Below are positions 6,530-27,562 of a stretch of 32,000 bases of DNA, one piece after another. Origin of the DNA: Nitrososphaerota archaeon. GTDB taxonomy: Archaea; Thermoproteota; Nitrososphaeria; Nitrososphaerales; Nitrosopumilaceae. The notes beneath the pieces are model-generated. The model saw nothing but the letters and a program-made list of their open reading frames with translations, ran no database searches and was not told where the DNA came from. Both the position numbers and the translations under genes were made by a program. The stretch's first letter is position 1. The number at the start of each line of letters is the position of its first letter. The stretch lies in contig JAGWFS010000002.1 in the NCBI GenBank assembly GCA_028867785.1, forward strand, positions 116,678 to 148,677, read 5' to 3'.

Positions 6530-7660
6530 ATGAAAGTGTCCGCTATGGTAATCGCAAGTCTTGCCGTATTGGCAGTATTTTGTGCAGGTTTGATGCAGCA
6601 GTCGTTTGCTGACGGCTTCCAGCCGCCGCTATTCAAGTGGCTCTACAAACCAGCAATCTGCGTCTTTGAACCGTCTGATCCTCACTTTCCAGGCTTGGGA
6701 AAAAAGATGTTTTCCATGACACATGATGCCGTGCTTAGCTGGCAGACAAAACTCAATGGCGGCAACGCAAATGGTGCATGGAACCTGAGCCTAGTTGACA
6801 TTCCGTCTTCAGAAGCAAGCTCCTACGATGCAACTGACTGCGACATTACAGTCAACTTCAAACCGTCTCCTGACAATCCAAGTGAAAAATTCAACGAGGC
6901 TGGAATCACAGTATACAAGAACTTTCCAAAGGTATACGTCACAATATACTATCTGGGAATAAATCTAAAGGAACAATATCTGACGTTTTGGCAAAATGGA
7001 ACATTATACTATACGTATCAACCCATACCATACTTTACAGGGTATCTTGCAAGCGATCCGCAGCTTGAGATGACCATACTGCACGAACTTGGCCACTCTC
7101 TTGGGCTTGGGCATTACATTGTGCCCGATATGGAATTGAAGCGAATAGTGCAGGGCTATCAGGACATGCCATCAATCATGGTTACAACCGTGTTTAGTTA
7201 CGGCGTGACTCACTTTGACATCACCACTCTTGACATAAAAGAGATCCAGTCAATTTATGGTACTCAAGGACTGCCAACCAAACAATCCATATCCAATCAA
7301 AGCATTACCACAAGCACTGAAAACATTATTCCAAACCAAGTTAACATCTCACCGCAACAAAATCTCAGCCCTGTACCAACTGCAGGCACGCCGTCGCAGA
7401 TACCGTCATGGATAAAAAACATTGCCAGGTGGTGGTCTGCAAATCAAGTCAGCGATGATGAATTTGCAGGTGCTATGAAGTATTTGATCCAGCAGGGTAT
7501 CCTGAAAGTTCCTCCAACTCAGAGCACTGTATCCTCTGGGCATATTCCGTCCTGGGTAAAGACAAATTCTGGATACTGGGCAGATGGCAAGATATCTGAC
7601 TATGAATTTATCCGGGGAATCCAGTACTTGATAAGTACGGGAATAATCGTGATACAGTAA
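6530..7660 (+). CDS. Secreted zinc metalloprotease (metzincin/matrixin-like) with two C-terminal repeat modules
   Basis: It has a signal peptide (MKVSAMVIASLAVLAVFCAGLMQQSFA) and the zinc site HELGHSLGLGH (HExxHxxGxxH, 7082-7114). Two ~38-aa repeats, IPSW[IV]K..(x)..W..(x)..[IV]SD.EF..(x)..YLI..GI, lie at 7400-7657. Confidence 0.8.
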   Translation: MKVSAMVIASLAVLAVFCAGLMQQSFADGFQPPLFKWLYKPAICVFEPSDPHFPGLGKKMFSMTHDAVLSWQTKLNGGNANGAWNLSLVDIPSSEASSYDATDCDITVNFKPSPDNPSEKFNEAGITVYKNFPKVYVTIYYLGINLKEQYLTFWQNGTLYYTYQPIPYFTGYLASDPQLEMTILHELGHSLGLGHYIVPDMELKRIVQGYQDMPSIMVTTVFSYGVTHFDITTLDIKEIQSIYGTQGLPTKQSISNQSITTSTENIIPNQVNISPQQNLSPVPTAGTPSQIPSWIKNIARWWSANQVSDDEFAGAMKYLIQQGILKVPPTQSTVSSGHIPSWVKTNSGYWADGKISDYEFIRGIQYLISTGIIVIQ

Positions 7661-7915: not shown

Positions 7916-8075
7916 GGAATATCTCCTAGTGACGTGGCACACCTGAACCAGATTGCCAGTACGCCCATGCACAGAGCGGGGCTGATCTACAATTCAAGTT
8001 TTTCTTTTGTTTTGTATGGATTCATCAAGTTTTGCAATTTTTGATCAAGCTACTTCTTAAGAGATCAGGATATCT

Positions 8076-11034: not shown

Positions 11035-11235
11035 TCAATCTCCGGCTGATGTATTTTTTTGCTTCAGGCGTTTCCACGAAATGACGATTCCAGCTATCAA
11101 AAAGGCTATCATGATTGAACTTACTATTGCGGGAAGAGACCGTGAGAACCTTTCTAAAAATGACAGGAAATTCGGTGGTTCCACTGAGAGTAATAATACG
11201 ATACCAGCACAAAGTATGATGTAGTTGCGTATCAT
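11035..11235 (-). CDS. Hypothetical small membrane protein (2 TM)
   Basis: An internal ATG gives MIRNYIILCAGIVLLLSV...IMIAFLIAGIVISWKRLKQK. It lies immediately downstream of 11286-11756 on the same strand. Confidence 0.3.
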   Translation of the reverse strand: MIRNYIILCAGIVLLLSVEPPNFLSFLERFSRSLPAIVSSIMIAFLIAGIVISWKRLKQKNTSAGD

Positions 11236-11285
11236 ACATGCATCATTTTGTTCGTAGGCATTCTGCACCAAATGGCGCGTGCTAA

Positions 11286-11756
11286 TCAAGCGCCGCCTAT
11301 GTAGTGCATCTTCTCATGGTCTTTATGGTCTGCTTCAAAAAAGGACATGCGACCGCAATGCTGGCACACAAAAAAGCCGTCATTGGAAGCATCATTGCAT
11401 TTGAGCGTCTCCCCGCTCAGCAAGGTTATTGAAATATCCTGATTCATGGCTGTTACCGCAAAATCGTTTTCTCTGTTTGCAAGTTTCAAAAAATCCTTGA
11501 TCGACTTTATTGCCTTGTTAACGTCTAATTCCTCATCTTCTGTCGTTGTCAGAATAAATTCATGGGCTTTTAGTACTGGTACTGCCTCGATTTGTTCAGC
11601 CACATGAACCGCGAGTTTTGACATTGCCGCCTCGGAACCTTTGCATTTTACAACTATCATTTTTTCACGTAATTCGATTGAGACCGCATCGTATTTTTGT
11701 CTTGTCTGTGTTGATCTTATGGAATGATCTTCGCAAAGAGTGTGATTCTTGATCAC
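11286..11756 (-). CDS. Hypothetical protein with a C-terminal C2H2-type zinc finger
   Basis: 156 aa. The C-terminus FVCQHCGRMSFFEADHKDHEKMH has C-x2-C ... H-x(3-4)-H spacing. Confidence 0.55.
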   Translation of the reverse strand: MIKNHTLCEDHSIRSTQTRQKYDAVSIELREKMIVVKCKGSEAAMSKLAVHVAEQIEAVPVLKAHEFILTTTEDEELDVNKAIKSIKDFLKLANRENDFAVTAMNQDISITLLSGETLKCNDASNDGFFVCQHCGRMSFFEADHKDHEKMHYIGGA

Positions 11757-13302: not shown

Positions 13303-13953
13303 TTAGTCCCACTTGGACCAAGCGGCCATCCACCTATAAGTCCAGGTTGTAAGTTTGCAACCTAGTGCGGTTATAGGCACAGTCAGGACCGCTCCAGCGC
13401 CTGCAGCAAGAGCCACAGGACTGTCATAGAACTTGCCTACCTGCGGTTCTATTGGGGTCATGTATGGTGGAAGTGTTGTTCTTGGATATTTGAAAGCAGT
13501 CTCCAACGGATCATTTATTGTCAGTAAATTGAGCATGTTGAACATTGGCAGAGACATTCCACACAGCACGCCGCCTACCAAGATCAACATGTGCTTGTTT
13601 CTCTTGGTTGCCCAATATGCAAGATCCATCAGTATGGCTGACGGTATGAATATTGGTACGACGATGAAGCTGTACGGATATCCTAGGGAGAACCACGCAC
13701 CTTTTGCAATCCATATGTACACTGTCATTATCAGCGCATAGTAGGTTGCCGTTCCTGGCACGCCAGTGAACGTAAGGTAGTATGCTGCACCGACGGCGAG
13801 CATCGTTGACTGGCCTATGGAGAAAATCACAAACGATGTCCAGGCCCAGTCGGTGTAGAACTCATAGTCTCCCGTGTTGATTGTCAACAAGGTTGAGTTG
13901 ACTGCTACAACTACTATGAATAAGTAGTGTGTGCATCTTCGTAACCAGACCAT
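13303..13953 (-). CDS. amoA: Ammonia monooxygenase subunit A (archaeal type)
   Basis: The 216 aa are near-collinear with archaeal AmoA as I know it: MVWLRRCTHYLFIVVVAVNSTLLTIN.GDY.FYTDWAWTSF...FTGVPGTATYY...AKGAWF.LGYPY.FIVVP...YWATKRNKH...MFNM.NLL...DPLE.AFKYPR.TLPPYMTPIEPQVGKFY.SPVAL..GAGAVL.VPI.ALG.KL.TWTYRWMAA. Confidence 0.97.
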   Translation of the reverse strand: MVWLRRCTHYLFIVVVAVNSTLLTINTGDYEFYTDWAWTSFVIFSIGQSTMLAVGAAYYLTFTGVPGTATYYALIMTVYIWIAKGAWFSLGYPYSFIVVPIFIPSAILMDLAYWATKRNKHMLILVGGVLCGMSLPMFNMLNLLTINDPLETAFKYPRTTLPPYMTPIEPQVGKFYDSPVALAAGAGAVLTVPITALGCKLTTWTYRWMAAWSKWD

Positions 13954-17112: not shown

Positions 17113-17673
17113 ATGAATAACGAACCGAACACAATTTCAACAGCAACCCTTGTGTGGCTGGCAACAGCTCTCTTACATAAAGAGAGGAAAGAAGCTGAAG
17201 CATTTGAGTCAAGTGAGATTTTTGAGAAGGTAAAGAGTCTGGATCTATCGTCAGTATCTGACTCGACAATAAAAATGCACATTTCATTACACTGCGTTTC
17301 AAATGCACAATCTCAGCCAGACACCCACAAAAAACTCTTCAGAATCGCAAGGGGATGGTACAGACTTTACAGAGAGGGAGATCTATTTCACCCAAGCAGA
17401 GCACAGGGGAGAGTTCTACCTATAGCCGAAGAATTGCCATCAAAATACAGGCATCTGATTGAATGGTACAATGATGATTATTCAAAAAAACAAACTCAAC
17501 CAGCCCAGCCTAACAATGCAATATTTGTAAATATTGAAAATAATAAAACAATAATGCTACCAAATGAAATTGCCGAGTTTTTGCAGGTAGAGGACGGGGA
17601 TTATATTGCATTTATTACAAAATCAACAGATGAAGTTGTAATCAAAAAGGCCAGAATGAAGCTAGAAATATGA
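17113..17673 (+). CDS. DNA-binding protein: unknown N-terminal domain fused to a C-terminal SpoVT/AbrB-like domain
   Basis: The C-terminus IMLPNEIAEFLQVEDGDYIAFITKSTDEVVIKKA fits the AbrB swapped-hairpin pattern. The N-terminal ~120 aa (..LFRIARGWYRLY..) suggest a winged-helix-like module, which is unverified. Confidence 0.55.
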   Translation: MNNEPNTISTATLVWLATALLHKERKEAEAFESSEIFEKVKSLDLSSVSDSTIKMHISLHCVSNAQSQPDTHKKLFRIARGWYRLYREGDLFHPSRAQGRVLPIAEELPSKYRHLIEWYNDDYSKKQTQPAQPNNAIFVNIENNKTIMLPNEIAEFLQVEDGDYIAFITKSTDEVVIKKARMKLEI

Positions 17674-18256
17674 AATGAAGCAATATGATGGATAACATGG
17701 CAGAGGACTCGATACAATATCTTTTACAACCAATGTCCTGATAAATGGGAATAGACAAGAAAGAAAAGCTTTTGTTTTACATTTTTTCTGTAAGGTTATG
17801 ACAGCTCAATCGGTGGCCTCGCTTAGCTTTTCGGATGCCCAATGAGCTTGTGAGCATTTAATAGATGATATCTACGAATTTGTTGATTCGATCAATATTG
17901 TATTCCCAGGTCATGGCTATGACGTATTGGCGCGGCTCATTTGGTATCTATGAAAGCAAGTATATTAGCTGCACATGGTCCTTTCATCCAAAGTTATGTT
18001 TGTGAGACATTCATTGGTGAATTTCTTCATACTTTCACTCATATTGTGTATCCAGATTTCTTGTATGGATTTTTTGTGTTGTTGACGATATCAGGTTTGT
18101 AGACCTTCTCGGCTCAATCTTGTGGTTCGATTTCTTCAGAGTAGAATCTTCTGTCGTCTATCTTTCCTTCTTTTCTGCGCTTTTCAATTTCTGGAGAAAT
18201 CCAGATGCTCATTATGGAATTTAAAAAATTCTTGGTCCCTTCTTCATCTAACGACA

Positions 18257-18550
18257 TTATTCTTCTCTCAAGTTGTTTTCAATGTACTCAATAATTTCAC
18301 TTTTCATTCTGGGATTCAGCGACGCCGTGGTGTTCCCTTTGTGCAAAATCAGAAATCCCTCATTTGCGAGCTCCTTTACTTTTTTCTTGACGTTCTTTCC
18401 GTTGTTCCTTACCACCTGTCCAAGCCAGTTTGCCATGGTATCGATAGGAAAATAGTGCTCTCCCCACCTTCCCTTACGCATGATGAAGTTGAGAATGAGG
18501 GCCCTGAGTTCAGGGTCTTGGTAGTCTCTTTTCATAAGTACACTTAACAT
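18257..18550 (-). CDS. Putative winged-helix DNA-binding protein
   Basis: The 97 aa (probable start at MKRDYQ...) contain ...VKKKVKELANEGFLILHKGNTTASLNP, which resembles a recognition helix plus wing. It is divergent from 18598-18960. Confidence 0.45.
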   Translation of the reverse strand: MLSVLMKRDYQDPELRALILNFIMRKGRWGEHYFPIDTMANWLGQVVRNNGKNVKKKVKELANEGFLILHKGNTTASLNPRMKSEIIEYIENNLREE

Positions 18551-18597
18551 ACCTTTAGAAGTCTAGATTTAAATACTTTTGAAATGGTAGTAGTAGT

Positions 18598-18960
18598 ATG
18601 GATAGCACCGGGGGTAGTAGGGGGGGCAGCGAATACGCGTCACTGATAACAAAAGTTCTAGGCTATTCCCCAAAGATGAAGATCCTCGATTATCTTCTAG
18701 ATTTCCCAACAAACGATTTCACAAAGAAAGAGATCATAGATGCACTGGGGATGAGCAAGCAGACCTTCTACAAGTACTTTGACGACCTGGAGGATGTTGG
18801 AATTGTAAAGGTCAACAGAACAATTGGAAAGGCAAGGCTCTACATGGTTAACCGTGGCAATCCTGTTGTCAAAGATCTGGCGAATCTGGAAAGAAAAATA
18901 TCCATGCAAATAGCTGACGCAGAAGAAGAAAAGCTCGGCAAACCAATCCCTGCAAAATAA
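18598..18960 (+). CDS. Winged-helix transcriptional regulator (ArsR/TrmB-like pattern)
   Basis: KILDYLLDFPTNDFTKKEIIDALGMSKQTFYKYFDDLEDVGIVKVNRTIGKARLYMVN follows an HTH-plus-wing pattern. The size and context are typical of archaeal mobile-element regulators. Confidence 0.65.
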   Translation: MDSTGGSRGGSEYASLITKVLGYSPKMKILDYLLDFPTNDFTKKEIIDALGMSKQTFYKYFDDLEDVGIVKVNRTIGKARLYMVNRGNPVVKDLANLERKISMQIADAEEEKLGKPIPAK

Positions 18961-19024
18961 TCATGTGATCAAAGAGATGGATATCTGATCAACCTTTTAA
19001 CTCTGCCACGCACATTGGAAGATA

Positions 19025-19294
19025 ATGGTTAAAACAAAATCAATCGAAGAATCTGTAGAAAACTACGTTGGCAGCATATCAGTTGGCATGCTCAAGTACA
19101 AAAAACACCTAATGCGCGATAAAAATTTCAGCGAAGCCGATGCCATTGATAAGACATTAGAATATGGCATGGGGATGCTAAGATCTGGTTTAGGCGGTAC
19201 TATCACACCGCAGCGAGCAGCAGCATTGTTTAGAGAACAGGCCGACATTAACACTGCACTTGCAAACATATGTGAAAAGGAAGAACATTCTTAA
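19025..19294 (+). CDS. Hypothetical protein (89 aa)
   Basis: An ORF of ordinary composition immediately upstream of the ATP-grasp gene. No family was recognised. Confidence 0.4.
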   Translation: MVKTKSIEESVENYVGSISVGMLKYKKHLMRDKNFSEADAIDKTLEYGMGMLRSGLGGTITPQRAAALFREQADINTALANICEKEEHS

Positions 19295-19377
19295 TTAATA
19301 TCAAAAAATAAGACTGTTCATTGATTGAACACCGTAAAAGAATTGGAAGAACTATAGAAAAAACTATTCGTAGACAA

Positions 19378-20372
19378 ATGCATGACACGCTTACAATAGG
19401 AATCACTTTTGACACTAGGAAAGATTTCAAATTCGAACATGATGATCCATGGGACTGGGATATTGAACTCCAGGTTTCAATGTCGGTCGATGACATCTCA
19501 AGAGCACTAGAGGATCTGGGCCACAAGACAGTTTTGATTGGAAGCGGTACCACTCTAGTAGATAATTTCTCAAAACACAAAAATGAAGTTGATCTCGTTT
19601 TCAACATCGCGGAAGGAAGATTTGGAGGGGTAGGGAAGGGCAGGTACCTGCATTGCTTGAGATGGCAGGCATTCCATTTGTCGGTTCTGATTCATATGCT
19701 ACATCAGTTGCCATGAATAAATGGCATACAAAAGTAATTGGGCAAACTTATGGAATACGTACCGCACCGTTTACCGTCATAGAAAACACGGGTTTCATAA
19801 AAAAAGAAAACATCCAAAAATATCCTGTGATTGCAAAGCTTTGCTATGAAGGCAGCAGCATGGGATTGGACGAAAAATCAAAGGTTTACGATTTTAATAG
19901 TCTGCAGAAACAAGTCAAGTATCTTCTTAGAACATACAAGCAGCCTGTCTTGGTAGAGGAATTCATAACGGGAACCGAGATTGACGTGCCAATCATAGGA
20001 AATAGACCAGAGACAGTCTTTGGCATCGTTGGCATCTCTCTTGATAACAAAGAGATGGGAGACCGTCATCTCACATCAAAGATAGTATATGATGACAAGT
20101 ATTGTTTTCATTATCCAATGAACGCCTCTTTTGAAACGGAGGCAAGTCAAATGTCTCTAAAAATGTACGATATTTTGGGATGCAGGGATTTTGGTAGGAT
20201 GGATATGAGAATCAATTCCAATGGGGAGCCATATCTTCTTGAAGCACATGCACTTCCATATATCGGAAAACATAGCAGCTTTAATCACATAGCAGAAAAA
20301 AATGGAATGAAGTACAGGGACATGATTGGTATGATTCTTGACAATGCAATTGCCAGATACGGTTTTAATTAA
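19378..20372 (+). pseudogene. D-alanine--D-alanine-ligase-like ATP-grasp enzyme, interrupted by one frameshift
   Basis: The Ddl-like N-domain (..VDLVFNIAEGRFGG) is in frame 1. The continuation (REGQVPALLEMAGIPFVGSDSYATSVAMNKWHTK...PVIAKLCYEGSSMG...VLVEEFITGTEIDV) is in the frame of ORF 19653-20372. The switch lies at the G4 run 19627-19630, and adding one G restores FGGGREGQVPALLEM. Confidence 0.7.
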
Positions 20373-22903
20373 TCCCAGAGGTGTATGTCACATGTATAGT
20401 AATCCAGTTCATAGAACCATTTTTGTAACCTCTCAGTTTTGAAAATCTCTGAACTTTTCCTGGCGATTTCAGCAGATTCCTTGCCGAAACCTTTTCTGTC
20501 CAGTATTTTTGATAATAGTCGGTATCTCTTTGCAAGGATCAGTTCATCATCGTATTTGTAGTTGTGCGGTTTGAACTTCTCTAGCCACACCTGTGCCTCA
20601 TCAAACTCGCCTAGCTCGTAATGTATGGCTGCTCGGTTTAATCCATAGTAGTCATTCATCAGGCCTTCTGGATATGACAGAACCAAAGGTTCAAGATGTA
20701 TTATTACTTTTCTTGCTCTTTCTACATCGCCCGTCTGTCTTAACACATTTGCAATGTTCATGTTGACAAATATTTCGTTAAACAGTTCGCTGACATTGGC
20801 GTTTGCATCCTCAAAAAACTGCAAAGCCTTGACATAGTCATCCCTCTGTTGGTAGACCAGACCTAAGTTGTTGAGAGGTATGTCTACCTCCGGTGAATCC
20901 AAGCTTCTGAAGATCTCAAGGCTTGAACCAAGGTACTTTTCAGCATCGTCAAACTTTGCAATGTAAAAGCTCTCTGCGCCCATGTTGTTAAGACACCTTG
21001 CTTTTTCTATCTTCATTGAATATCTTTCAAATGAATCAAGTGCGTTTTTCATGAACTCTATCGCTCTTCTAGATTCGTAAATGATACCAGACTTTCTCTG
21101 CAGCTTGGCCAGTCCTATTGCATCGTTTGCCAAGTTGAAATTAATCTGACTCTTTCCAAACGCATCTGCGGCCTTTTCTCTGTGGCCAAAATGATCATAA
21201 ACCGTGGTAAGAAAAGAATAGGCCTCTCCCAATTTGTTTACATTTCCAATTTTTTCATAAATTCTCAAACTCTCCTCTAACGAAAAAATTGCTTTTTTTC
21301 CTGCATCGCCTGTTCCTTCGTATCTCCAGCATCTTCCCAAAAGCAGATTTGCTTCTGCCTTTTGTATCTCTGACAAATTAGATGTCTGAAGCAAATTATT
21401 GAGGTTTATAATGCATGATGACGTGTTGTTATTGCCAAGCAACGATCTTGCATATCCAATCTTGAGCAAGATGTGCGCTGACTCTGAAATCTGTACTCTT
21501 TTTTCCTTTATCAATTGAAAACATTCTTCGTATTGTTTTACGGAATTTGAAAAAAAGTAGTTATCAAATGACGTTTCTGCTGACAGTTCTAGATACTTTA
21601 GTGCTTTCTCCCACTCGCGACCATTGTAGTAATGATACGACGTGATAAAGGGATCTTTGTGTTTGCCAAAGTTGTTTTCTAGGAATTTTGCAATCTCTCT
21701 GTGGCATTCAACTGCAAGCGTGCCAAGCCCTGAATAGATCGTCTCCTGCGTCTTTCTGTGGTCAAAAACAAAAGTTGTACTGTCTCCTACTCTCTTTACT
21801 ATGGAATAGATATTCTCTAGGTCCTCAAGCATGTGAAAGATCTCCATCTTGTCTTTTCTCATAAAGTTGCTTATCGTATCCAGATCAAATTGATATCCAA
21901 GCACAGATGCATATGCAAGAAGGTCTCTTGCGCCTGGCAAGTCTCTGTAAACCTTCCCTAAGCGCTTGCAAATTGTCTCAGACAAGTTTTCTGGTAGTAC
22001 GTTTTCATTTAACAAATCAGAAATTACCCAATAACCATTATTGTCAATAGTTGCTGCTTTTGATTCTCTGAAGAGACCAAGGAGTGATTTCAGGAAAAAT
22101 GGGTTTCCGCTAGTTTGCTTGTACAGCAAATGCACCACATCCTTGCTGAACTTGTGTGGTCCAAGGAAACCCTGTATGAAGTTGGGGTATAGTTTTTCCG
22201 GAACTGCATCCAGTTTTATTATTGCGGATTTCTTACTGTCAAGTTTGGACAGGGTTTCAAAATATTTCCTTGCATCTAATTCCTTTTGGCTTGTAACAAA
22301 TCCTGTCCTGTATGACATGATGAACATCACTTTGTTTGTGACTTTTCTCATTAGATATGACAACAACTCAAGTGAAGTACTGTCAAACCATTGAATATCT
22401 TCTGCATGCAGCACGATTGTTTTCTTTCTTATAATCTTTTGAAATATTGCTAAATAATTAGAAAACGCATAATGGCTATTATCCACGGAATATCTGTCAA
22501 CATCAGACATTCCGCGAATGGTCTTTGTGATTTCCTGCGCTGCACCAACATAAGGTTCCAATGTTGGGACAAGTTTGGCCAAGTTTAGAATTGTATCAAG
22601 CAGGTCTCCCTTGGTAAAATCTCGATAATCTGATAAAAGCACTTTGACCATCTCTAAGAAAGGAAACAGTGGTGATTCTTGCTCCTCGTATCCTTTTGCA
22701 GTGAGTATGATTATGTCATCTGATTTTACTGAAAAAAGAAATTTGTTCACAAGAGAAGTCTTTCCCATTCCTGCTTCTCCTAGGACAAATACAAATTGGC
22801 TCTGTAAGGAATCGTTTACCTTGTAGAAAACCGCATTCAGAGTTTCCAGAACATCTTCTCTATCCAAGAAAAACTCTTGGCTTGTTACCGTTTTTTCCTT
22901 CAT
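20369..22903 (-). CDS. STAND-type NTPase (AAA_16-like P-loop domain) with a long C-terminal TPR array
   Basis: The 844 aa carry Walker A GEAGMGKTS (22754-22780), a Walker B-like TIVLHAEDIQWFD, and the GNPFF motif typical of AAA_16/MalT-like ATPases. The C-terminal ~400 aa are TPR-like repeats. I saw no effector or HTH domain. Confidence 0.85.
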   Translation of the reverse strand: MKEKTVTSQEFFLDREDVLETLNAVFYKVNDSLQSQFVFVLGEAGMGKTSLVNKFLFSVKSDDIIILTAKGYEEQESPLFPFLEMVKVLLSDYRDFTKGDLLDTILNLAKLVPTLEPYVGAAQEITKTIRGMSDVDRYSVDNSHYAFSNYLAIFQKIIRKKTIVLHAEDIQWFDSTSLELLSYLMRKVTNKVMFIMSYRTGFVTSQKELDARKYFETLSKLDSKKSAIIKLDAVPEKLYPNFIQGFLGPHKFSKDVVHLLYKQTSGNPFFLKSLLGLFRESKAATIDNNGYWVISDLLNENVLPENLSETICKRLGKVYRDLPGARDLLAYASVLGYQFDLDTISNFMRKDKMEIFHMLEDLENIYSIVKRVGDSTTFVFDHRKTQETIYSGLGTLAVECHREIAKFLENNFGKHKDPFITSYHYYNGREWEKALKYLELSAETSFDNYFFSNSVKQYEECFQLIKEKRVQISESAHILLKIGYARSLLGNNNTSSCIINLNNLLQTSNLSEIQKAEANLLLGRCWRYEGTGDAGKKAIFSLEESLRIYEKIGNVNKLGEAYSFLTTVYDHFGHREKAADAFGKSQINFNLANDAIGLAKLQRKSGIIYESRRAIEFMKNALDSFERYSMKIEKARCLNNMGAESFYIAKFDDAEKYLGSSLEIFRSLDSPEVDIPLNNLGLVYQQRDDYVKALQFFEDANANVSELFNEIFVNMNIANVLRQTGDVERARKVIIHLEPLVLSYPEGLMNDYYGLNRAAIHYELGEFDEAQVWLEKFKPHNYKYDDELILAKRYRLLSKILDRKGFGKESAEIARKSSEIFKTERLQKWFYELDYYTCDIHLWD

Positions 22904-22979
22904 TGGGTTAAGATTTAAGCTGCTTTAGAACTAATTATGTTTTGATATGAACATAATTTAATGCACATAAGGTGTATTC

Positions 22980-23420
22980 ATGCAACGAGATCATGTTAAG
23001 ATTAAACTTGCCGGTTACAGAGACGCTGAAAGTTTTCTCAGACTTGAGGCAAAGTGCTTTGACATGAAAGCGAACCGTGACACGATATATTTTTGGACGC
23101 CTGCAGTGAGTTACCTTTGGTCATACAAGGCAGAGATGAACGGAAAGATTGTCGGTGGAATAATTGCAACACCCACTAGGGATGGATGTTGGTATATCAA
23201 TTCCTTGTTTGTACACCCAACATATAGAAAGCACGGTATTGCTACTAGGCTAGTTTCAAGAATCATCAAAGTTGCAGGAAAGAAAAAAATCATTCTTGAT
23301 ACTTTTAAGGACAGGCCGTATCTTTTAGAATTCTACGGCAAGCGAGGGTTTAGGATCAAGAAATCGATGAGAAATTACTACAAAGACAACGAAAACCGAT
23401 ATCTCTTGGAGCATGTGTGA
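22980..23420 (+). CDS. GNAT-family N-acetyltransferase (RimI-like size)
   Basis: The 146 aa contain the motif A region INSLFVHPTYRKHGIATRLVSRII and a C-terminal YGKRGFRI. It is divergent from the STAND gene across a 76-bp spacer. Confidence 0.85.
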   Translation: MQRDHVKIKLAGYRDAESFLRLEAKCFDMKANRDTIYFWTPAVSYLWSYKAEMNGKIVGGIIATPTRDGCWYINSLFVHPTYRKHGIATRLVSRIIKVAGKKKIILDTFKDRPYLLEFYGKRGFRIKKSMRNYYKDNENRYLLEHV

Positions 23421-23497: not shown

Positions 23498-23746
23498 TTA
23501 ACCGTTTTTTCTTTTTACAAATAATTTATTTGAAACAAAATATCCCAATTCCCAAACGAGTTTGATCATGTGACAAAAATCTTGCTCTAATTTACGACTA
23601 CTTTTGGTTTCTGTAGGATCGTATGAACACCAAGAGTCTGGCAAAACTTTTTCATCTTTGTCATTTATTGTTGCCTTTGCGGTTATGAATTCCATTCCTG
23701 CATCATCCGATATGTCATATACTTCTTTTTCAAAAGATTCACTCAT
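23498..23746 (-). CDS. Hypothetical protein (possibly the read-through tail of the decayed recombinase locus)
   Basis: This 82-aa ORF is in the same frame as ORF 23813-24106 and separated from it by a single TAG (23810-23812). No family was recognised. Confidence 0.3.
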   Translation of the reverse strand: MSESFEKEVYDISDDAGMEFITAKATINDKDEKVLPDSWCSYDPTETKSSRKLEQDFCHMIKLVWELGYFVSNKLFVKRKNG

Positions 23747-23812
23747 GTCTTTTTTCTTAGTTAAAGAATTATATCCAAATAAAAATCCACTATGCGCAAC
23801 CCTGTTTCGTTT

Positions 23813-24510
23813 CTATCTTGTGTTAAATAGATCAGAAAATCTCTTGTTCTCTTTCAAATCTATTTTCAGTATCTTTTTGTAAACTTTATTCAGATCCTCA
23901 AAATTACCTCTTCCTCTTTCTAATGCAAAACTGATCAGATCTTCTTTTGGAATATCGAATTTCTTGATTTCTCTTCCTTTTATTTTGGTATTTGTTATGT
24001 TTTCTTTAATAGCGATGAAAATAGCTTCACGTAGAAATTCTTCTAATATGCCCCATATGGAGATTTGACACAAATAGTAAAAATTGGGAATGATAACGGC
24101 TGCCATGGTATACGACTTTACTGAAATCTCTTGAGTCGAGCTTCATCCACCTGAAAAATATTTTCAAAATCTTCTTGCGGTCAAATGTCGTGTGGGTCTC
24201 ACGACCTGAATCATCGGAATATAATTCTACAATCTTTGTAACAAGATTATCTACATCTGACTTTGTCACATGTTTCCATTCTACTGGAAGTAATCTGCTC
24301 AATGTCAAAAGAACTTGAAGATGTTTGAGTCTTGTCGCTTTTGTAAGAGACTCCCTTATCATCAGTCTGTCGTACTCTTCGATTATTTTTATTGTGTCTT
24401 CAGATATTTTCTGGTCGTTGCGAATTAGTTTTTTTAATTCCTTCTATTCTCCTGTCATAATCGTAAATGTCGATTTCATTTTTTGTCAATCGAGAAAACT
24501 TTTGTTTCAA
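23813..24510 (-). pseudogene. Tyrosine recombinase (archaeal XerA/integrase-like), decayed and lacking a recognisable catalytic C-terminal half
   Basis: The N-terminal SAM-like domain pattern is ISEDTIKIIEEYDRLMIRESLTKATRLKHLQVLLTLSRLL..WKHVTKSDVDNLVTKI...T..DRKKILKIFFRWMKL. A frameshift lies in the T7/A7 run 24429-24435, and a second frame change lies near 24110. In the core-domain start (ISIWGILEEFL...NTKIKGREIKKFDIP) the expected Arg is not evident, and I found no HxxR or Tyr region. Confidence 0.55.
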
Positions 24511-24574: not shown

Positions 24575-27562
24575 TTAGTGCTTTGCAGTAAGCCTGTCGT
24601 GAATCTGAGCCAGGATCAATTCTGCCTTGTCTTTATTTTCAAACGCCTCCTCTTTTTCATCCATGATTGCGTCAATCTCGTAGCTCTTGTCGACCAGCAC
24701 GTTTGCAACATGATCGTCAAGTGTGGCGTTTCCTATCAGATAATATGCAAATACTGTGTTCTTCTGTCCTATCCTGTGCAGCCTGTCCTCAGCTTGTCTG
24801 TGTATTGCAGGACTCCAGTCAAGCTCGGCAAATATGACGTATCTTGCCTTGCTTAGGTTTATTCCGACGTTTCCGGCCCGCAGTCCTGCAATCATGAGCT
24901 TTGTCTCACCGTTCTGGAATCTGTCTATGTTGTCCTGTCTTTCCTTGTCCGACTGTCCCCCTATGATTGACGAAGGAGAATATTCATGAAGGCTCTTGTG
25001 CAGCAGGGCATGTATTGCCTTGTGATGGCAGAATACAACGACACTTTCCTCTATCTCCATTATGTTTTTGACAAACTCGATGACATGGGGCAGCTTTGCA
25101 GCCCCGGCTGCCTGTCTCTCGCTCTGTATTGCTCTCTTGTATGATGAAAACTTGTCAAATGCAGACGTTGCAGTTTTTTGCTCTTCTTCAAGGCGCTTCC
25201 AAATCTTGTCAAGCTCTGAATAGTAATAGTTAATGTCAGAGTCGATAAACTCCTTGTATCTGACCTTTTCCTTCAACTCCTTTAATACGTCTGATTTTTT
25301 GCGCCTGAGCATGACATGTTTTCGCAACTCTTCTCCCAAACTTGCCCGCTTATTTTCAAGCACTATTGCCTTGCCTTTTTCGTTTACATAACAGAAATAC
25401 TCGCAAAACTCGTCAAAGCTTCCCAGCAGTCCCGGCCGCAGTATGTCTACTATGGGCCATATCTCAGAGCCCCTGTTGTAAATCGGAGTGCCGGACAGAC
25501 CAATTCTGTATTTTATGGATTCAAGTCCTGCAAGTTTTTTTACTGCGGAATATTTCTTGGTTGATTTTGAACGAAGGTGCTGCACTTCATCGCATACCAG
25601 GGTCTTTATGTTCAATTTTGAAAGGTCGTCCAGTCTCTTGTATAGCAGATCATAGTTTATGATGTAAATGTCATACTTGCCAATCTCCTGTGACTTGCCT
25701 GTTCGAATGAGCACTGATGATGGATGCTGGTCTTCAACAACTCGGCCGTTTCGGCTCCTTTTTTTCAGGAACTTCTGGATCTCTCTCTGCCAGTTGCTCA
25801 ATGTTACAAGAGGTGCAACTATGAGAGCTGGAAATGTTTGTTTTTCTGTAGCCAAGTATGATAGAGTCTGAACGGTATTATGGGTAATGATGCCATTGGC
25901 AACATAGTTATGAGTATCTGGAACAGACAAGTCGTAGACATAACCTGCATAATGCTTTGTCTCGATCGATTTGATTGTACACCAGTTGATCGACTCCAAA
26001 GACATTTCTCGTAACTGACTTGAAAGTTCGTACTCGTGAAGTGATTCCAACTTGTTGGAGACAGAAATGGCCAACTGTTTACTCATGCCTTGCGTGTACT
26101 TGTACGGAGTGTAGAGGTCAAGTGAACGTAATGGTATTCTAGTCTCTGCAATTTTTCGAACAATTTTCTGCGATGGTATGCCTTCAATGTCTGTATTGTG
26201 CTTTTTTGATGCAAGTTTTTCTAACGCCCTTTGTTTGTATGCGGTAAGAAGAGTGAACTGTTCGTGGAATTTAGATACAGAATTTCCGCCAAATGTGCAT
26301 GTGTAGTATTTTCTACGTTTTCTAGAACCGTTTGATGCATATTTCTTTGCAATTCTAATGCGAAGCCAGATTCCAAAGTGTAAGAGAATTTCACGCAACG
26401 TAAATGCGATGGATTTGCTTGCCGTAGTTAGTTCACAGTGAGTCTTGCCTACGTGGCCTTCTGCATCAAAAATGGCCTGAACAAACGTCTTCTGGGTTTC
26501 TAAAGGAGCCTCGAGTATTGCTCTTGGGACAATTTTGTCCTTTGATTTCTTGCCCCACTTATATCCCCATTTTGAAAATAATTTGTAAAATTGAGTTGTA
26601 GCAATAACGAAAGTTGTTTTATCCTTTCTTGGTTTGGGCAGTTCTATTCCTTGACATTTTCCTAACTGTCTCACTCTTGATAATATTTTTGAATCAGAAT
26701 TATAAAATCTTCCATGAGGATATCTATTATTTTCAAAATACTCGTATCCCTCTGAAATCTGCCATGCAATTAATTCAGCCACCTCTGGTGATAGCGAATT
26801 TTTTCCTACATGCAAAGTTTTTGAAGGAACTGCCACCTTGTCGTCCATGCTTAGTTTTCCAGCCATCTTCCAGCCTTCTGGTGTGTGCAATCTATGACGT
26901 TTTGTACATTCTATCGACAAGCCGTCTGCAAGTGTGATCTTTACTATATCCTCGTCTATCTTCTGCCGAAAGACTCTTGAGACCTTCTTAGTTACAATCT
27001 TTCTTCCATCAAATGATTGGACATTGATTGGGACTTTTAGTCGGCCCCATTCCTCATGTCTACTTCTGTCCGTTACTGTTGCTTCATCCCAGATCTCTTT
27101 AATCGTAACTTGGCTATTTCTGGTACTTATCAAAGTATTTTGTACTATGCATTTTCCCAATCCCATTTCGTCAGCCAATAGTGCGTTGCCAGAAGATTTT
27201 AACAAAAAGTCCAGTCCCTCTCTCTGAAAATTGAGCAGGGTTCCCCTGAACTGCTCGCCAGGATTTGCCTTTCGCAGCTTTTCTATTCTGGTCCATTTTC
27301 TTTTTCGAACTGTCATATGCCTTGTCTTTCTCTGCCAGATGTTTCTTGATTTTATCTCTAGCGGGTACGTCTCCATTATCCATTTTATCTTCTGGACGTT
27401 TTGCTCTGTATCGGGAACTATGGCCTCTTCAGGTCCACCACCGTACCAGGCATGAGGTATGACCCGCGCCACCATGCTTACGGCCCTCGAGCCGGTAAGC
27501 TTCCAAGTCCAGTTTTTTGAGTAAATGTCCAAGACATACTCTAGGGTTCCAAATTCTTTCAT
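24575..27562 (-). CDS. SNF2-family (SWI2/SNF2, Rad54/RapA-like) helicase containing an intein; predicted mature extein 570 aa
   Basis: Motif I DEMGLGK|...|TVQTL is split by the insert. Motif II is LVCDEVQHL, motif III is LSGTPIYN, and the C-terminal helicase motifs are GLRAGNVGINL....DWSPAIHRQAEDRLHRIGQ. Confidence 0.9.
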   Translation of the reverse strand: MKEFGTLEYVLDIYSKNWTWKLTGSRAVSMVARVIPHAWYGGGPEEAIVPDTEQNVQKIKWIMETYPLEIKSRNIWQRKTRHMTVRKRKWTRIEKLRKANPGEQFRGTLLNFQREGLDFLLKSSGNALLADEMGLGKCIVQNTLISTRNSQVTIKEIWDEATVTDRSRHEEWGRLKVPINVQSFDGRKIVTKKVSRVFRQKIDEDIVKITLADGLSIECTKRHRLHTPEGWKMAGKLSMDDKVAVPSKTLHVGKNSLSPEVAELIAWQISEGYEYFENNRYPHGRFYNSDSKILSRVRQLGKCQGIELPKPRKDKTTFVIATTQFYKLFSKWGYKWGKKSKDKIVPRAILEAPLETQKTFVQAIFDAEGHVGKTHCELTTASKSIAFTLREILLHFGIWLRIRIAKKYASNGSRKRRKYYTCTFGGNSVSKFHEQFTLLTAYKQRALEKLASKKHNTDIEGIPSQKIVRKIAETRIPLRSLDLYTPYKYTQGMSKQLAISVSNKLESLHEYELSSQLREMSLESINWCTIKSIETKHYAGYVYDLSVPDTHNYVANGIITHNTVQTLSYLATEKQTFPALIVAPLVTLSNWQREIQKFLKKRSRNGRVVEDQHPSSVLIRTGKSQEIGKYDIYIINYDLLYKRLDDLSKLNIKTLVCDEVQHLRSKSTKKYSAVKKLAGLESIKYRIGLSGTPIYNRGSEIWPIVDILRPGLLGSFDEFCEYFCYVNEKGKAIVLENKRASLGEELRKHVMLRRKKSDVLKELKEKVRYKEFIDSDINYYYSELDKIWKRLEEEQKTATSAFDKFSSYKRAIQSERQAAGAAKLPHVIEFVKNIMEIEESVVVFCHHKAIHALLHKSLHEYSPSSIIGGQSDKERQDNIDRFQNGETKLMIAGLRAGNVGINLSKARYVIFAELDWSPAIHRQAEDRLHRIGQKNTVFAYYLIGNATLDDHVANVLVDKSYEIDAIMDEKEEAFENKDKAELILAQIHDRLTAKH
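25877..27151 (-). mobile_element. Intein (425 aa) with a LAGLIDADG homing-endonuclease domain, inserted in helicase motif I
   Basis: Residues 138-562 of the ORF form the insert. It has Cys1 (CIVQNTL), block B T-x-x-H (ECTKRHRLH), LAGLIDADG-like motifs LIAWQISEGYEY and FVQAIFDAEGHVG, and blocks F/G VYDLSVPDTHNYVANGIITHN followed by +1 Thr. Excision restores DEMGLGKTVQ. Confidence 0.88.

Follow-up and report, generated by a model that had tools for sequence, protein, structure and literature searches.

We analysed a 32,000-nucleotide stretch of DNA from a Nitrososphaerota archaeon (contig JAGWFS010000002.1, positions 116,678 to 148,677), referred to here as the window, and find that three adjacent genes in it, encoding a STAND NTPase, a Ddl-like ATP-grasp ligase and a GNAT acetyltransferase, recur as a set. 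The complete trio of GNAT, effector-less AAA_16/TPR STAND and Ddl-like ATP-grasp genes is present in 23 Nitrososphaerota loci, with six further loci cut by contig ends. It appears to be undescribed: a putative STAND/NLR-like conflict module in which a separate Ddl-like ligase and GNAT protein take the place of a fused effector. With slightly less than even confidence, we interpret the trio as a self-contained, mobile three-gene module of the conflict or defence type.

The three genes recur together in Nitrososphaerota

The STAND gene occupies positions 20369-22903 of the window on the minus strand and encodes 844 residues that match AAA_16 (E 7e-16), TPR_12 and other TPR families in Pfam. On the plus strand, the ligase gene (19321-20372; Dala_Dala_lig_C, E 3e-29) is split into two open reading frames (ORFs) at 19321-19716 and 19653-20372, and the RimI/NAT-like acetyltransferase gene (22980-23420) matches Acetyltransf_1 (E 2e-17). 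An earlier annotation of this DNA, which we call the original prediction, had assigned coordinates to the three genes, their stop codons, the spacer between STAND and GNAT, and a small upstream ORF; all of them hold on re-examination. As it had described, the STAND and ATP-grasp genes lie tail to tail with convergent stop codons that overlap in a common TTAA (20369-20372), and the STAND and GNAT genes lie head to head across a 76-bp spacer (22904-22979) that would serve as a divergent promoter region.

The original prediction had also proposed that the three genes form a functional unit, with conserved co-occurrence beyond this genome as the test. A word-based protein search returned only ~12 full-length STAND relatives, on whose contigs GNAT, STAND and ATP-grasp genes sit together in the same arrangement. 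We widened the set by searching with the better-conserved ligase and by a metagenome scan seeded on the STAND C-terminus. Among the hosts of the trio are Ca. Nitrosotalea devanaterra, whose closed genome (LN890280.1) carries it, and organisms known from metagenome-assembled genomes (MAGs): Nitrosotalea, Nitrosopumilaceae, Nitrososphaerales and other Nitrososphaerota. The named genomes whose loci are closest to that of the window belong to Nitrosotalea. The trio is complete in each locus whose contig allows it; one genome, G318, carries the ligase and GNAT genes only.

The arrangement of these loci is constrained in one respect and variable in another. In every locus the STAND and ligase genes converge, with stop codons that overlap by 4 or 16 nt in nearly all of them (the exceptions include L020 and L067, where the genes abut, and L011, with a gap of ~23 nt). 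The GNAT gene, by comparison, takes three positions: head to head with STAND, upstream of STAND on the same strand as in an operon, or head to head with the ligase. Each of these arrangements corresponds to one clade in the STAND tree. The trio is kept across STAND identities of 31-94%, and in 11 loci the pairwise-identity matrices of the three proteins correlate with r = 0.90-0.98.

Might three unrelated accessory genes simply have come to lie side by side? Each family is common by itself, and the few close STAND relatives found by the first search were compatible with such an accident. However, 23 loci with otherwise unrelated flanks have these three families side by side, so their adjacency goes beyond chance. 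Gene order has been rearranged while all three members were retained, and the proteins have diverged together. These co-occurrence data refute chance adjacency, to which we now give practically no weight, and strongly support the view that the three genes form a conserved module. They likewise support the functional module of the original prediction, with the enzymes as candidate output for an effector-less STAND protein. We infer the output role itself, in which STAND would act as the switch and the ligase, with GNAT, as the output in trans.

The STAND protein has no output domain of its own

The STAND protein had been described as lacking any effector or DNA-binding domain and as having only ~40 residues before its Walker A motif, and both Pfam and a structural model agree. 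The Walker A sequence GEAGMGKT lies at residues 42-49, preceded by ~40 residues. In the AlphaFold2 (AF2) model (pLDDT 85.5, pTM 0.80), an NBD-HD-WHD core extends to about residue 400 and is followed by nothing but helical (TPR) repeats up to residue 821, and then by a probably flexible tail. The model shows no extra domain, and Pfam gives no effector or helix-turn-helix (HTH) match. Among 18 orthologues with 31-94% identity (alignment A3), residues G42, G45, G47, K48, D169, D174, G266, P268 and H382 are invariant, and with them the Walker A, Walker B, GxP and WHD His motifs.

The closest structural relative found by Foldseek is PH0952dN (6mfv; E 9.5e-15), at ~14% sequence identity; further fold matches are SAMD9, Apaf-1, the peptide-binding TPRs of LGN, and MalT (8bob, E 7e-7). 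In PADLOC the sole match of the protein is to mad8 (E 9e-4), with none to an Avs, NLR or bNACHT model. Distant homologues that carry LuxR, cyclase or kinase domains are 150-400 residues longer. As it lacks a DNA-binding domain and matches neither the Avs nor the NLR models of PADLOC, the protein is not assigned to a known regulator family.

The most conserved parts of STAND are the TPR half and the C-terminal tail. An invariant Asn recurs every 38-40 residues on successive A-helices (N639/640, N678/679, N716, N756), forming a ladder. The last 22 residues (823-844, encoded at 20372-20437 on the minus strand) are near-invariant across the 18 orthologues and read T-x-R-P-QKWFY-x-LDYYPCDIH-x-W/L-D-COOH. 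The tail has a fixed length, always terminates in Asp and is kept also in a lineage that has no GNAT gene; it is absent from a Lachnospiraceae homologue. Its pLDDT of 63-67 in the model suggests that it is probably flexible.

The ligase has a Ddl fold and the acetyltransferase resembles RimI

The AF2 model of the ligase from locus L018 matches Ddl structures with TM scores of 0.72-0.87, and its top 50 fold matches in the Protein Data Bank (PDB) are all Ddl or VanA. Residues E30, K153, S159, E193, R273, D275, E288 and N290 are invariant or nearly so (alignment A2), and the residues for ATP/Mg and the acyl-phosphate are conserved together with the Glu that binds the substrate alpha-amino group. 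Two features set the family apart: a 16-residue acidic/Trp insert in the N-domain, which is disordered in the model, and a divergent omega-loop. Like the STAND tail, the insert is present in the lineage without GNAT and absent from the Lachnospiraceae homologue. In NCBIfam the ligase falls far short of every Ddl cut-off, reaching 157.8 bits at best where 243 are required. No mur genes lie near the ligase. Ammonia-oxidising archaea are not known to have murein, and a cell-wall precursor is therefore presumably not what the enzyme makes.

For the acetyltransferase, rimI is the best NCBIfam model (42.4 bits, against a cut-off of 86.4), and the best PDB sequence matches are NAA30, RimI and NAA10. 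The acetyl-CoA motif R-x-x-G-x-A is conserved (RKHGIATRL), 29 columns are invariant in alignment A4, and a C-terminal motif of the type NYYxDGxDR is present. Judged by their intact NTPase, ligase and acetyl-CoA motifs, the three proteins look catalytically competent as families.

The copy in the window departs from this pattern in its ligase gene. Alignment A1, with the intact ligase genes of L018, L012 and L008, shows that one base is missing from a G-rich stretch near 19625-19630. The L018 contig has a STAND protein 94% identical to that of the window and an intact 330-residue ligase (93% identity); intact orthologues measure 330-356 residues. If the frameshift is real, the module in the window is probably inactive. 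Broken copies are frequent elsewhere. The ligase is broken in L095 and L096 in addition to the window, STAND in L063 and L065, and GNAT in L095. Four of the affected MAGs bear the isolate prefix 'MFD', which we take to mark long-read assemblies; if so, some of the breaks may be sequencing errors.

Possible targets of the ligase

ATP-grasp enzymes can modify proteins as well as small molecules. RimK has ribosomal protein S6 as its target, LysX has LysW, and graspetide ligases act on their peptides, while an ATP-grasp enzyme together with a GNAT enzyme is the tailoring pair of microviridin. The trio could by analogy be a switch that is both written and read, in which the STAND tail is a substrate or docking peptide of the ATP-grasp enzyme, and possibly of GNAT, and its modification alters how the tail sits in the protein's own Asn-ladder TPR groove. 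The tail's invariance across 31-94% identity, its fixed length, predicted flexibility and conserved Thr, Lys, Asp and Glu residues would suit such a function, as would the Asn ladder, whose residues sit on one A-helix after another, an arrangement also seen in the peptide-binding TPRs of LGN. The family-specific, disordered acidic/Trp insert of the ligase points the same way, and tail and insert keep company, both being found in the GNAT-less lineage and both missing from the Lachnospiraceae homologue. However, the known ATP-grasps that modify proteins or peptides are RimK/MdnC-like rather than Ddl-like, the conserved Glu for an alpha-amino group argues for a free amino acid as first substrate, and the tail could be a mere structural cap. 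We therefore regard this account as distinctly unlikely.

A different proposal is that the trio is a regulated small-molecule module, accessory without being an immune system. The ligase would make a dipeptide-type compound, GNAT would N-acetylate it, and STAND would be the regulator or scaffold, acting post-translationally and in an ATP-dependent manner. The product might be an osmolyte, a signal or an antimetabolite, with acetylation as self-protection. Pairing of GNAT and ATP-grasp enzymes is a known logic for making N-acetyl-dipeptides, as in Ngg, the synthetase of N-acetylglutaminylglutamine amide (NAGGN), and for protecting a producer against its own dipeptide antimetabolites. The bona fide Ddl fold with its retained alpha-amino Glu is consistent with this proposal, a conserved sensor would fit a conserved small ligand, and G318 retains ligase and GNAT without STAND. 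The closest bacterial ligases also agree with it: they are tandem ligases, accompanied by a GNAT or by an enzyme resembling lysine aminomutase, in the vicinity of ClpB or MscS-type genes.

Other observations do not sit well with a small-molecule pathway. The unit has a sporadic distribution, travels as a block and is found beside DISARM, prokaryotic Argonaute (pAgo) and TIR genes, and no transporter or further biosynthetic gene travels with it. The G318 pair, flanked by transposases, may be a mere remnant, and we know of no metabolic pathway under the regulation of an effector-less STAND protein. On balance we find the small-molecule proposal, the main rival of a conflict or defence role, possible but doubtful.

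The bacterial ligase relatives are of interest in their own right. In Omnitrophota, Planctomycetia and other bacteria (L025/L026:7001-10177, L072:449-3913 and L074:5513-7984), they occur as tandem paralogues with a lysine-2,3-aminomutase-like radical SAM enzyme after them or a GNAT before them. These loci seem to encode a small-molecule pathway that has yet to be characterised. Loci L034-L056 of the genus g24 have a different ATP-grasp domain, with 30-37% identity to the trio ligase, in most of them within a frame of ~725 residues. The domain was found in 39 of 84 genomes of this one genus, which belongs to the same family, and seems to be part of a fusion protein inherited vertically.

The unit is mobile and in several contexts adjoins defence systems

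Among the 401 Nitrososphaeria genomes searched, only six have a trio-type ligase, and one of these is G318. Within the genus of the window, STAND was found in one of 36 other genomes. Similarity between the window and Nitrosotalea loci in tblastx comparisons is restricted to ~19.3-23.4 kb, the flanks beyond it being unrelated, and no two loci have the same flanks. The trio of N. devanaterra has another chromosomal location, ~570 kb away from the orthologue of the SNF2 gene that neighbours it in the window. At the level of sequence comparison, these patterns demonstrate that the unit of ~4.1 kb is accessory, sporadic and horizontally mobile.

In four independent contexts, the trio has known defence systems as immediate neighbours. 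One is DISARM (DrmB, 8e-176; DrmC, 2e-41) together with a helicase. Two unrelated loci have a short pAgo with a TIR/APAZ partner (pAgo_I, 2e-142 and 7e-166). The fourth has ThsB-like TIR proteins and PDC-S06 (1e-246). Across 13 further loci, 82 neighbouring ORFs gave single PADLOC matches to a type II methyltransferase, NsnA, PD-T4-2_A, PDC-S66, CARF, QueC and E1-E2; these were counted without a background control and are suggestive of a defence context. The location in a defence island that the original prediction had raised is thus borne out in four contexts and fails in others, which are not defence-like.

Two contigs from one sample, L023 and L024 (93 kb and 314 kb), carry an identical trio with the ThsB-TIR and PDC-S06 neighbours. 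They diverge further out, and one copy lies near a DDE transposase, which points to a recently duplicated or strain-variable defence island.

Locus L060:8094-14400 of G318 (Nitrososphaeria) holds the ligase and GNAT genes as a convergent, overlapping pair without a STAND gene, with genes for an rve integrase and two DDE_Tnp_4 transposases on the flanks. It is either a two-gene remnant or a two-gene variant of the unit.

If the trio is indeed a conflict or defence module, its working can be sketched as follows. STAND would be an NLR-like, ATP-driven switch without an output domain of its own, whose TPR solenoid, with its conserved Asn ladder, would read a peptide-like ligand. Once activated, STAND would open and multimerise. 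Opening would control the product of the tail-to-tail partner gene, the Ddl-fold ligase, which would join amino acids or amines at the cost of ATP. GNAT may then acetylate the amino group of the ligase product, or the same target, which would add a second step to the effector or else protect the cell itself. Growth arrest, or interference with an invading element, would be the result.

Several observations weigh against a conflict or defence role. None of the three proteins has homology to any validated defence protein (PADLOC: none), and some contexts are not defence islands, the neighbours in N. devanaterra being surface proteins. The nearest bacterial relatives of the ligase lie in metabolic-looking operons, as tandem ligases with the lysine-2,3-aminomutase-like radical SAM enzyme or GNAT, and no STAND gene was found near them. 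Finally, the sensor half of STAND is more conserved than the NTPase half (mean pairwise identity 0.58-0.67 over residues 601-680, compared to 0.27-0.49). Such a sensor is unlike the fast-evolving sensors of antiviral proteins and fits a conserved cellular ligand or partner. Searches of IMG/VR viral contigs with STAND and ligase profiles found no copy of the module. A viral origin is not supported by this result, which is neutral with respect to a defence role.

Related STAND/ligase pairs lie in invertible cassettes

Relatives of the trio without GNAT have a different companion. In the Lachnospiraceae MAG locus L099 (5846-11268), a Ddl-like ligase gene, a 788-residue STAND gene and an ORF of 278 residues lie between perfect inverted repeats of 90 nt (6841-6930 and 11179-11268), and a tyrosine recombinase of 306 residues is encoded just outside. 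A second lineage (L010, L019 and L114), whose STAND is 39% identical to that of the window, has the same convergent STAND/ligase pair, again without GNAT. Its inverted repeats of 29-81 nt have the palindromic core CATAACTAxCCGTTATTCCAA; the 29-nt repeats of L010 lie at 7916-7944 and 11514-11542, the L114 site at 574-620, and L019:1-3833 has a perfect 81-nt inverted repeat at both contig ends. The order is integrase, site, ligase in L010 and integrase, site, STAND in L114. Because the integrase adjoins the ligase in one and STAND in the other, the cassette occurs in both orientations. Genes flanking the cassette in this lineage gave no informative match in the genome of the window. A layout flipped by a recombinase is typical of costly, phase-varied functions.

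In the STAND tree this lineage is nested among the GNAT-type clades with 85/97 support; the root is uncertain, the bacterial outgroup being on a long branch. Considered together, the loci show that the STAND/ATP-grasp pair is the invariant core and GNAT a lineage-specific third partner, with GNAT in archaea and the recombinase with inverted repeats elsewhere as alternative third components.

Could the window itself hold such a cassette, decayed and fixed in one orientation, so that the trio has no joint function there? An A/T-rich motif in the STAND/GNAT spacer (22935-22951) recurs at 19295-19311, upstream of the ATP-grasp start. The two sites form a 17-nt inverted match (15/17) that brackets exactly the starts of ligase and STAND. 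A decayed tyrosine recombinase lies beside GNAT at 23498-24510, the ligase is frameshifted, and the relatives L010/L019/L114 and L099 show what strong inverted repeats with an integrase look like. However, the match is marginal, with a score of 12.0 where shuffled sequences reach at most 11.0, and no inverted repeat stood above shuffled controls in 17 other GNAT-type loci. A similar motif is present upstream of the STAND gene in L012 and L018, and the match has the appearance of a shared promoter element. The only match of the L010 integrase in this genome is on contig C272, with none on the window's contig (C222); GNAT-type loci elsewhere have no recombinase neighbour, and the invertible lineage is nested among GNAT-type clades. 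We therefore reject the invertible cassette as a reading of the window. A decayed cassette, like chance adjacency, fits the data poorly, and we think it very unlikely. The window type would be a static three-gene form.

A broader proposal can be built on both forms. The STAND/ligase pair would be the core of a hitherto unrecognised immune or conflict system of archaea and bacteria whose output is ATP-dependent amino-acid ligation, with the tail and the Asn-ladder TPR as a written-and-read switch and expression set by DNA inversion or by a partner acetyltransferase. In this complete form we consider the proposal unlikely. If it were true, the output would be unlike the nuclease, NADase or pore activities of other systems.

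Comparison with known systems

The original prediction did not recognise the combination as a described system, and we reach the same conclusion. PADLOC, Pfam and NCBIfam scans of the three proteins gave no defence model and no equivalog, and our literature search returned no description of a system made of STAND, a Ddl-like ligase and GNAT. What is added here is the GNAT-containing archaeal trio, the invariant STAND tail and the relation to the invertible form. That form shares with the trio the convergent, abutting STAND and Ddl-like ligase genes, whereas the window has GNAT in place of the recombinase, separate promoters and no significant inverted repeats.

In all domains of life, STAND/NLR-like proteins have a central part in immunity, and nearly all characterised prokaryotic ones carry the effector in the same chain. 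Avs/AVAST proteins are accessory, mobile and found in defence islands, and have a P-loop STAND core with a TPR-type sensor. However, their N-terminal effector (nuclease, SIR2, TIR or protease) is fused, and the trio STAND has none; the presumed output of the trio is the separate ligase and GNAT, and its sensor is the most conserved part of the protein and not the most variable. PH0952 of Pyrococcus horikoshii (6mfv) and MalT share with the trio STAND the NBD-HD-WHD-arm and the TPR sensor. Transcription factors of the MalT/LAL/PH0952 type have a DNA-binding effector (LuxR, ArsR or SARP), whereas the trio STAND lacks one and has the invariant C-terminal tail in addition. The effector of PH0952 is ArsR-like (PMC6468293). 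MalT is held inactive by the enzymes MalY, Aes and MalK, a precedent for partnership between a STAND protein and enzymes (PMC6468293, PMC10427625).

The enzymes, too, differ from their best-known counterparts. Ddl and VanA have the same three-domain ATP-grasp fold as the trio ligase, which is distinguished by its low score, the acidic/Trp insert and the omega-loop. RimI/Naa N-alpha-acetyltransferases give the best sequence matches of the trio GNAT, but the latter scores below the rimI cut-off and is an accessory paralogue that travels with the pair. A graspetide (microviridin-type) set comprises a RimK/MdnC-type ATP-grasp, a GNAT and a precursor peptide; the trio has a GNAT, its ligase is of Ddl type rather than RimK type, and the only candidate core peptide is the STAND tail.

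An effector-less STAND protein coupled to a Ddl-fold ligase across archaea and bacteria would imply either a new effector chemistry or a new kind of NLR-like regulation. The trio would also be among very few candidate defence modules specific to ammonia-oxidising archaea. It is accessible to experiment, with an intact copy in the cultivated Ca. Nitrosotalea devanaterra and bacterial homologues for standard laboratory hosts.

Neighbouring genes in the window

An ORF of 89 residues (19025-19294) precedes the ATP-grasp gene and had been listed with the trio in the original prediction. The ORF exists, but its membership of the module does not hold up: it is not conserved elsewhere. It has no Pfam, PADLOC or NCBIfam match, and the first 19 related loci held no counterpart in tblastn searches. 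In tblastx comparisons with eight Nitrosotalea-type loci, the common block starts downstream of this ORF, at ~19.27-19.33 kb, in seven of the eight; the merged block of L016 (genome G015) starts at 19007, unlike the other seven. We rejected the ORF as a fourth component and treat it as local filler that would lie outside the unit.

Further upstream is an island (17113-18960) with a DUF7669 protein (17113-17673) and a winged-helix protein of 120 residues (18598-18960), which matches the PADLOC candidate PDC-M05A (2e-9) and Csa3/CARF-associated winged helix-turn-helix models. Neither gene is conserved beside the trio in other loci, and the winged-helix protein was rejected on this ground as the missing DNA-binding output of STAND. 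An archaeal amoA gene lies at 13303-13953, and the window comes from an ammonia oxidiser of Nitrosotalea type. On the other side of the trio, a SNF2 helicase gene (24575-27562) is interrupted by a LAGLIDADG intein (Intein_splicing, 2.5e-24). The HtrA and SNF2 genes, between which the island might have been a simple insertion, are not adjacent to each other in relatives. SNF2 orthologues from four Nitrosotalea genomes share 89% identity in the C-terminal part.

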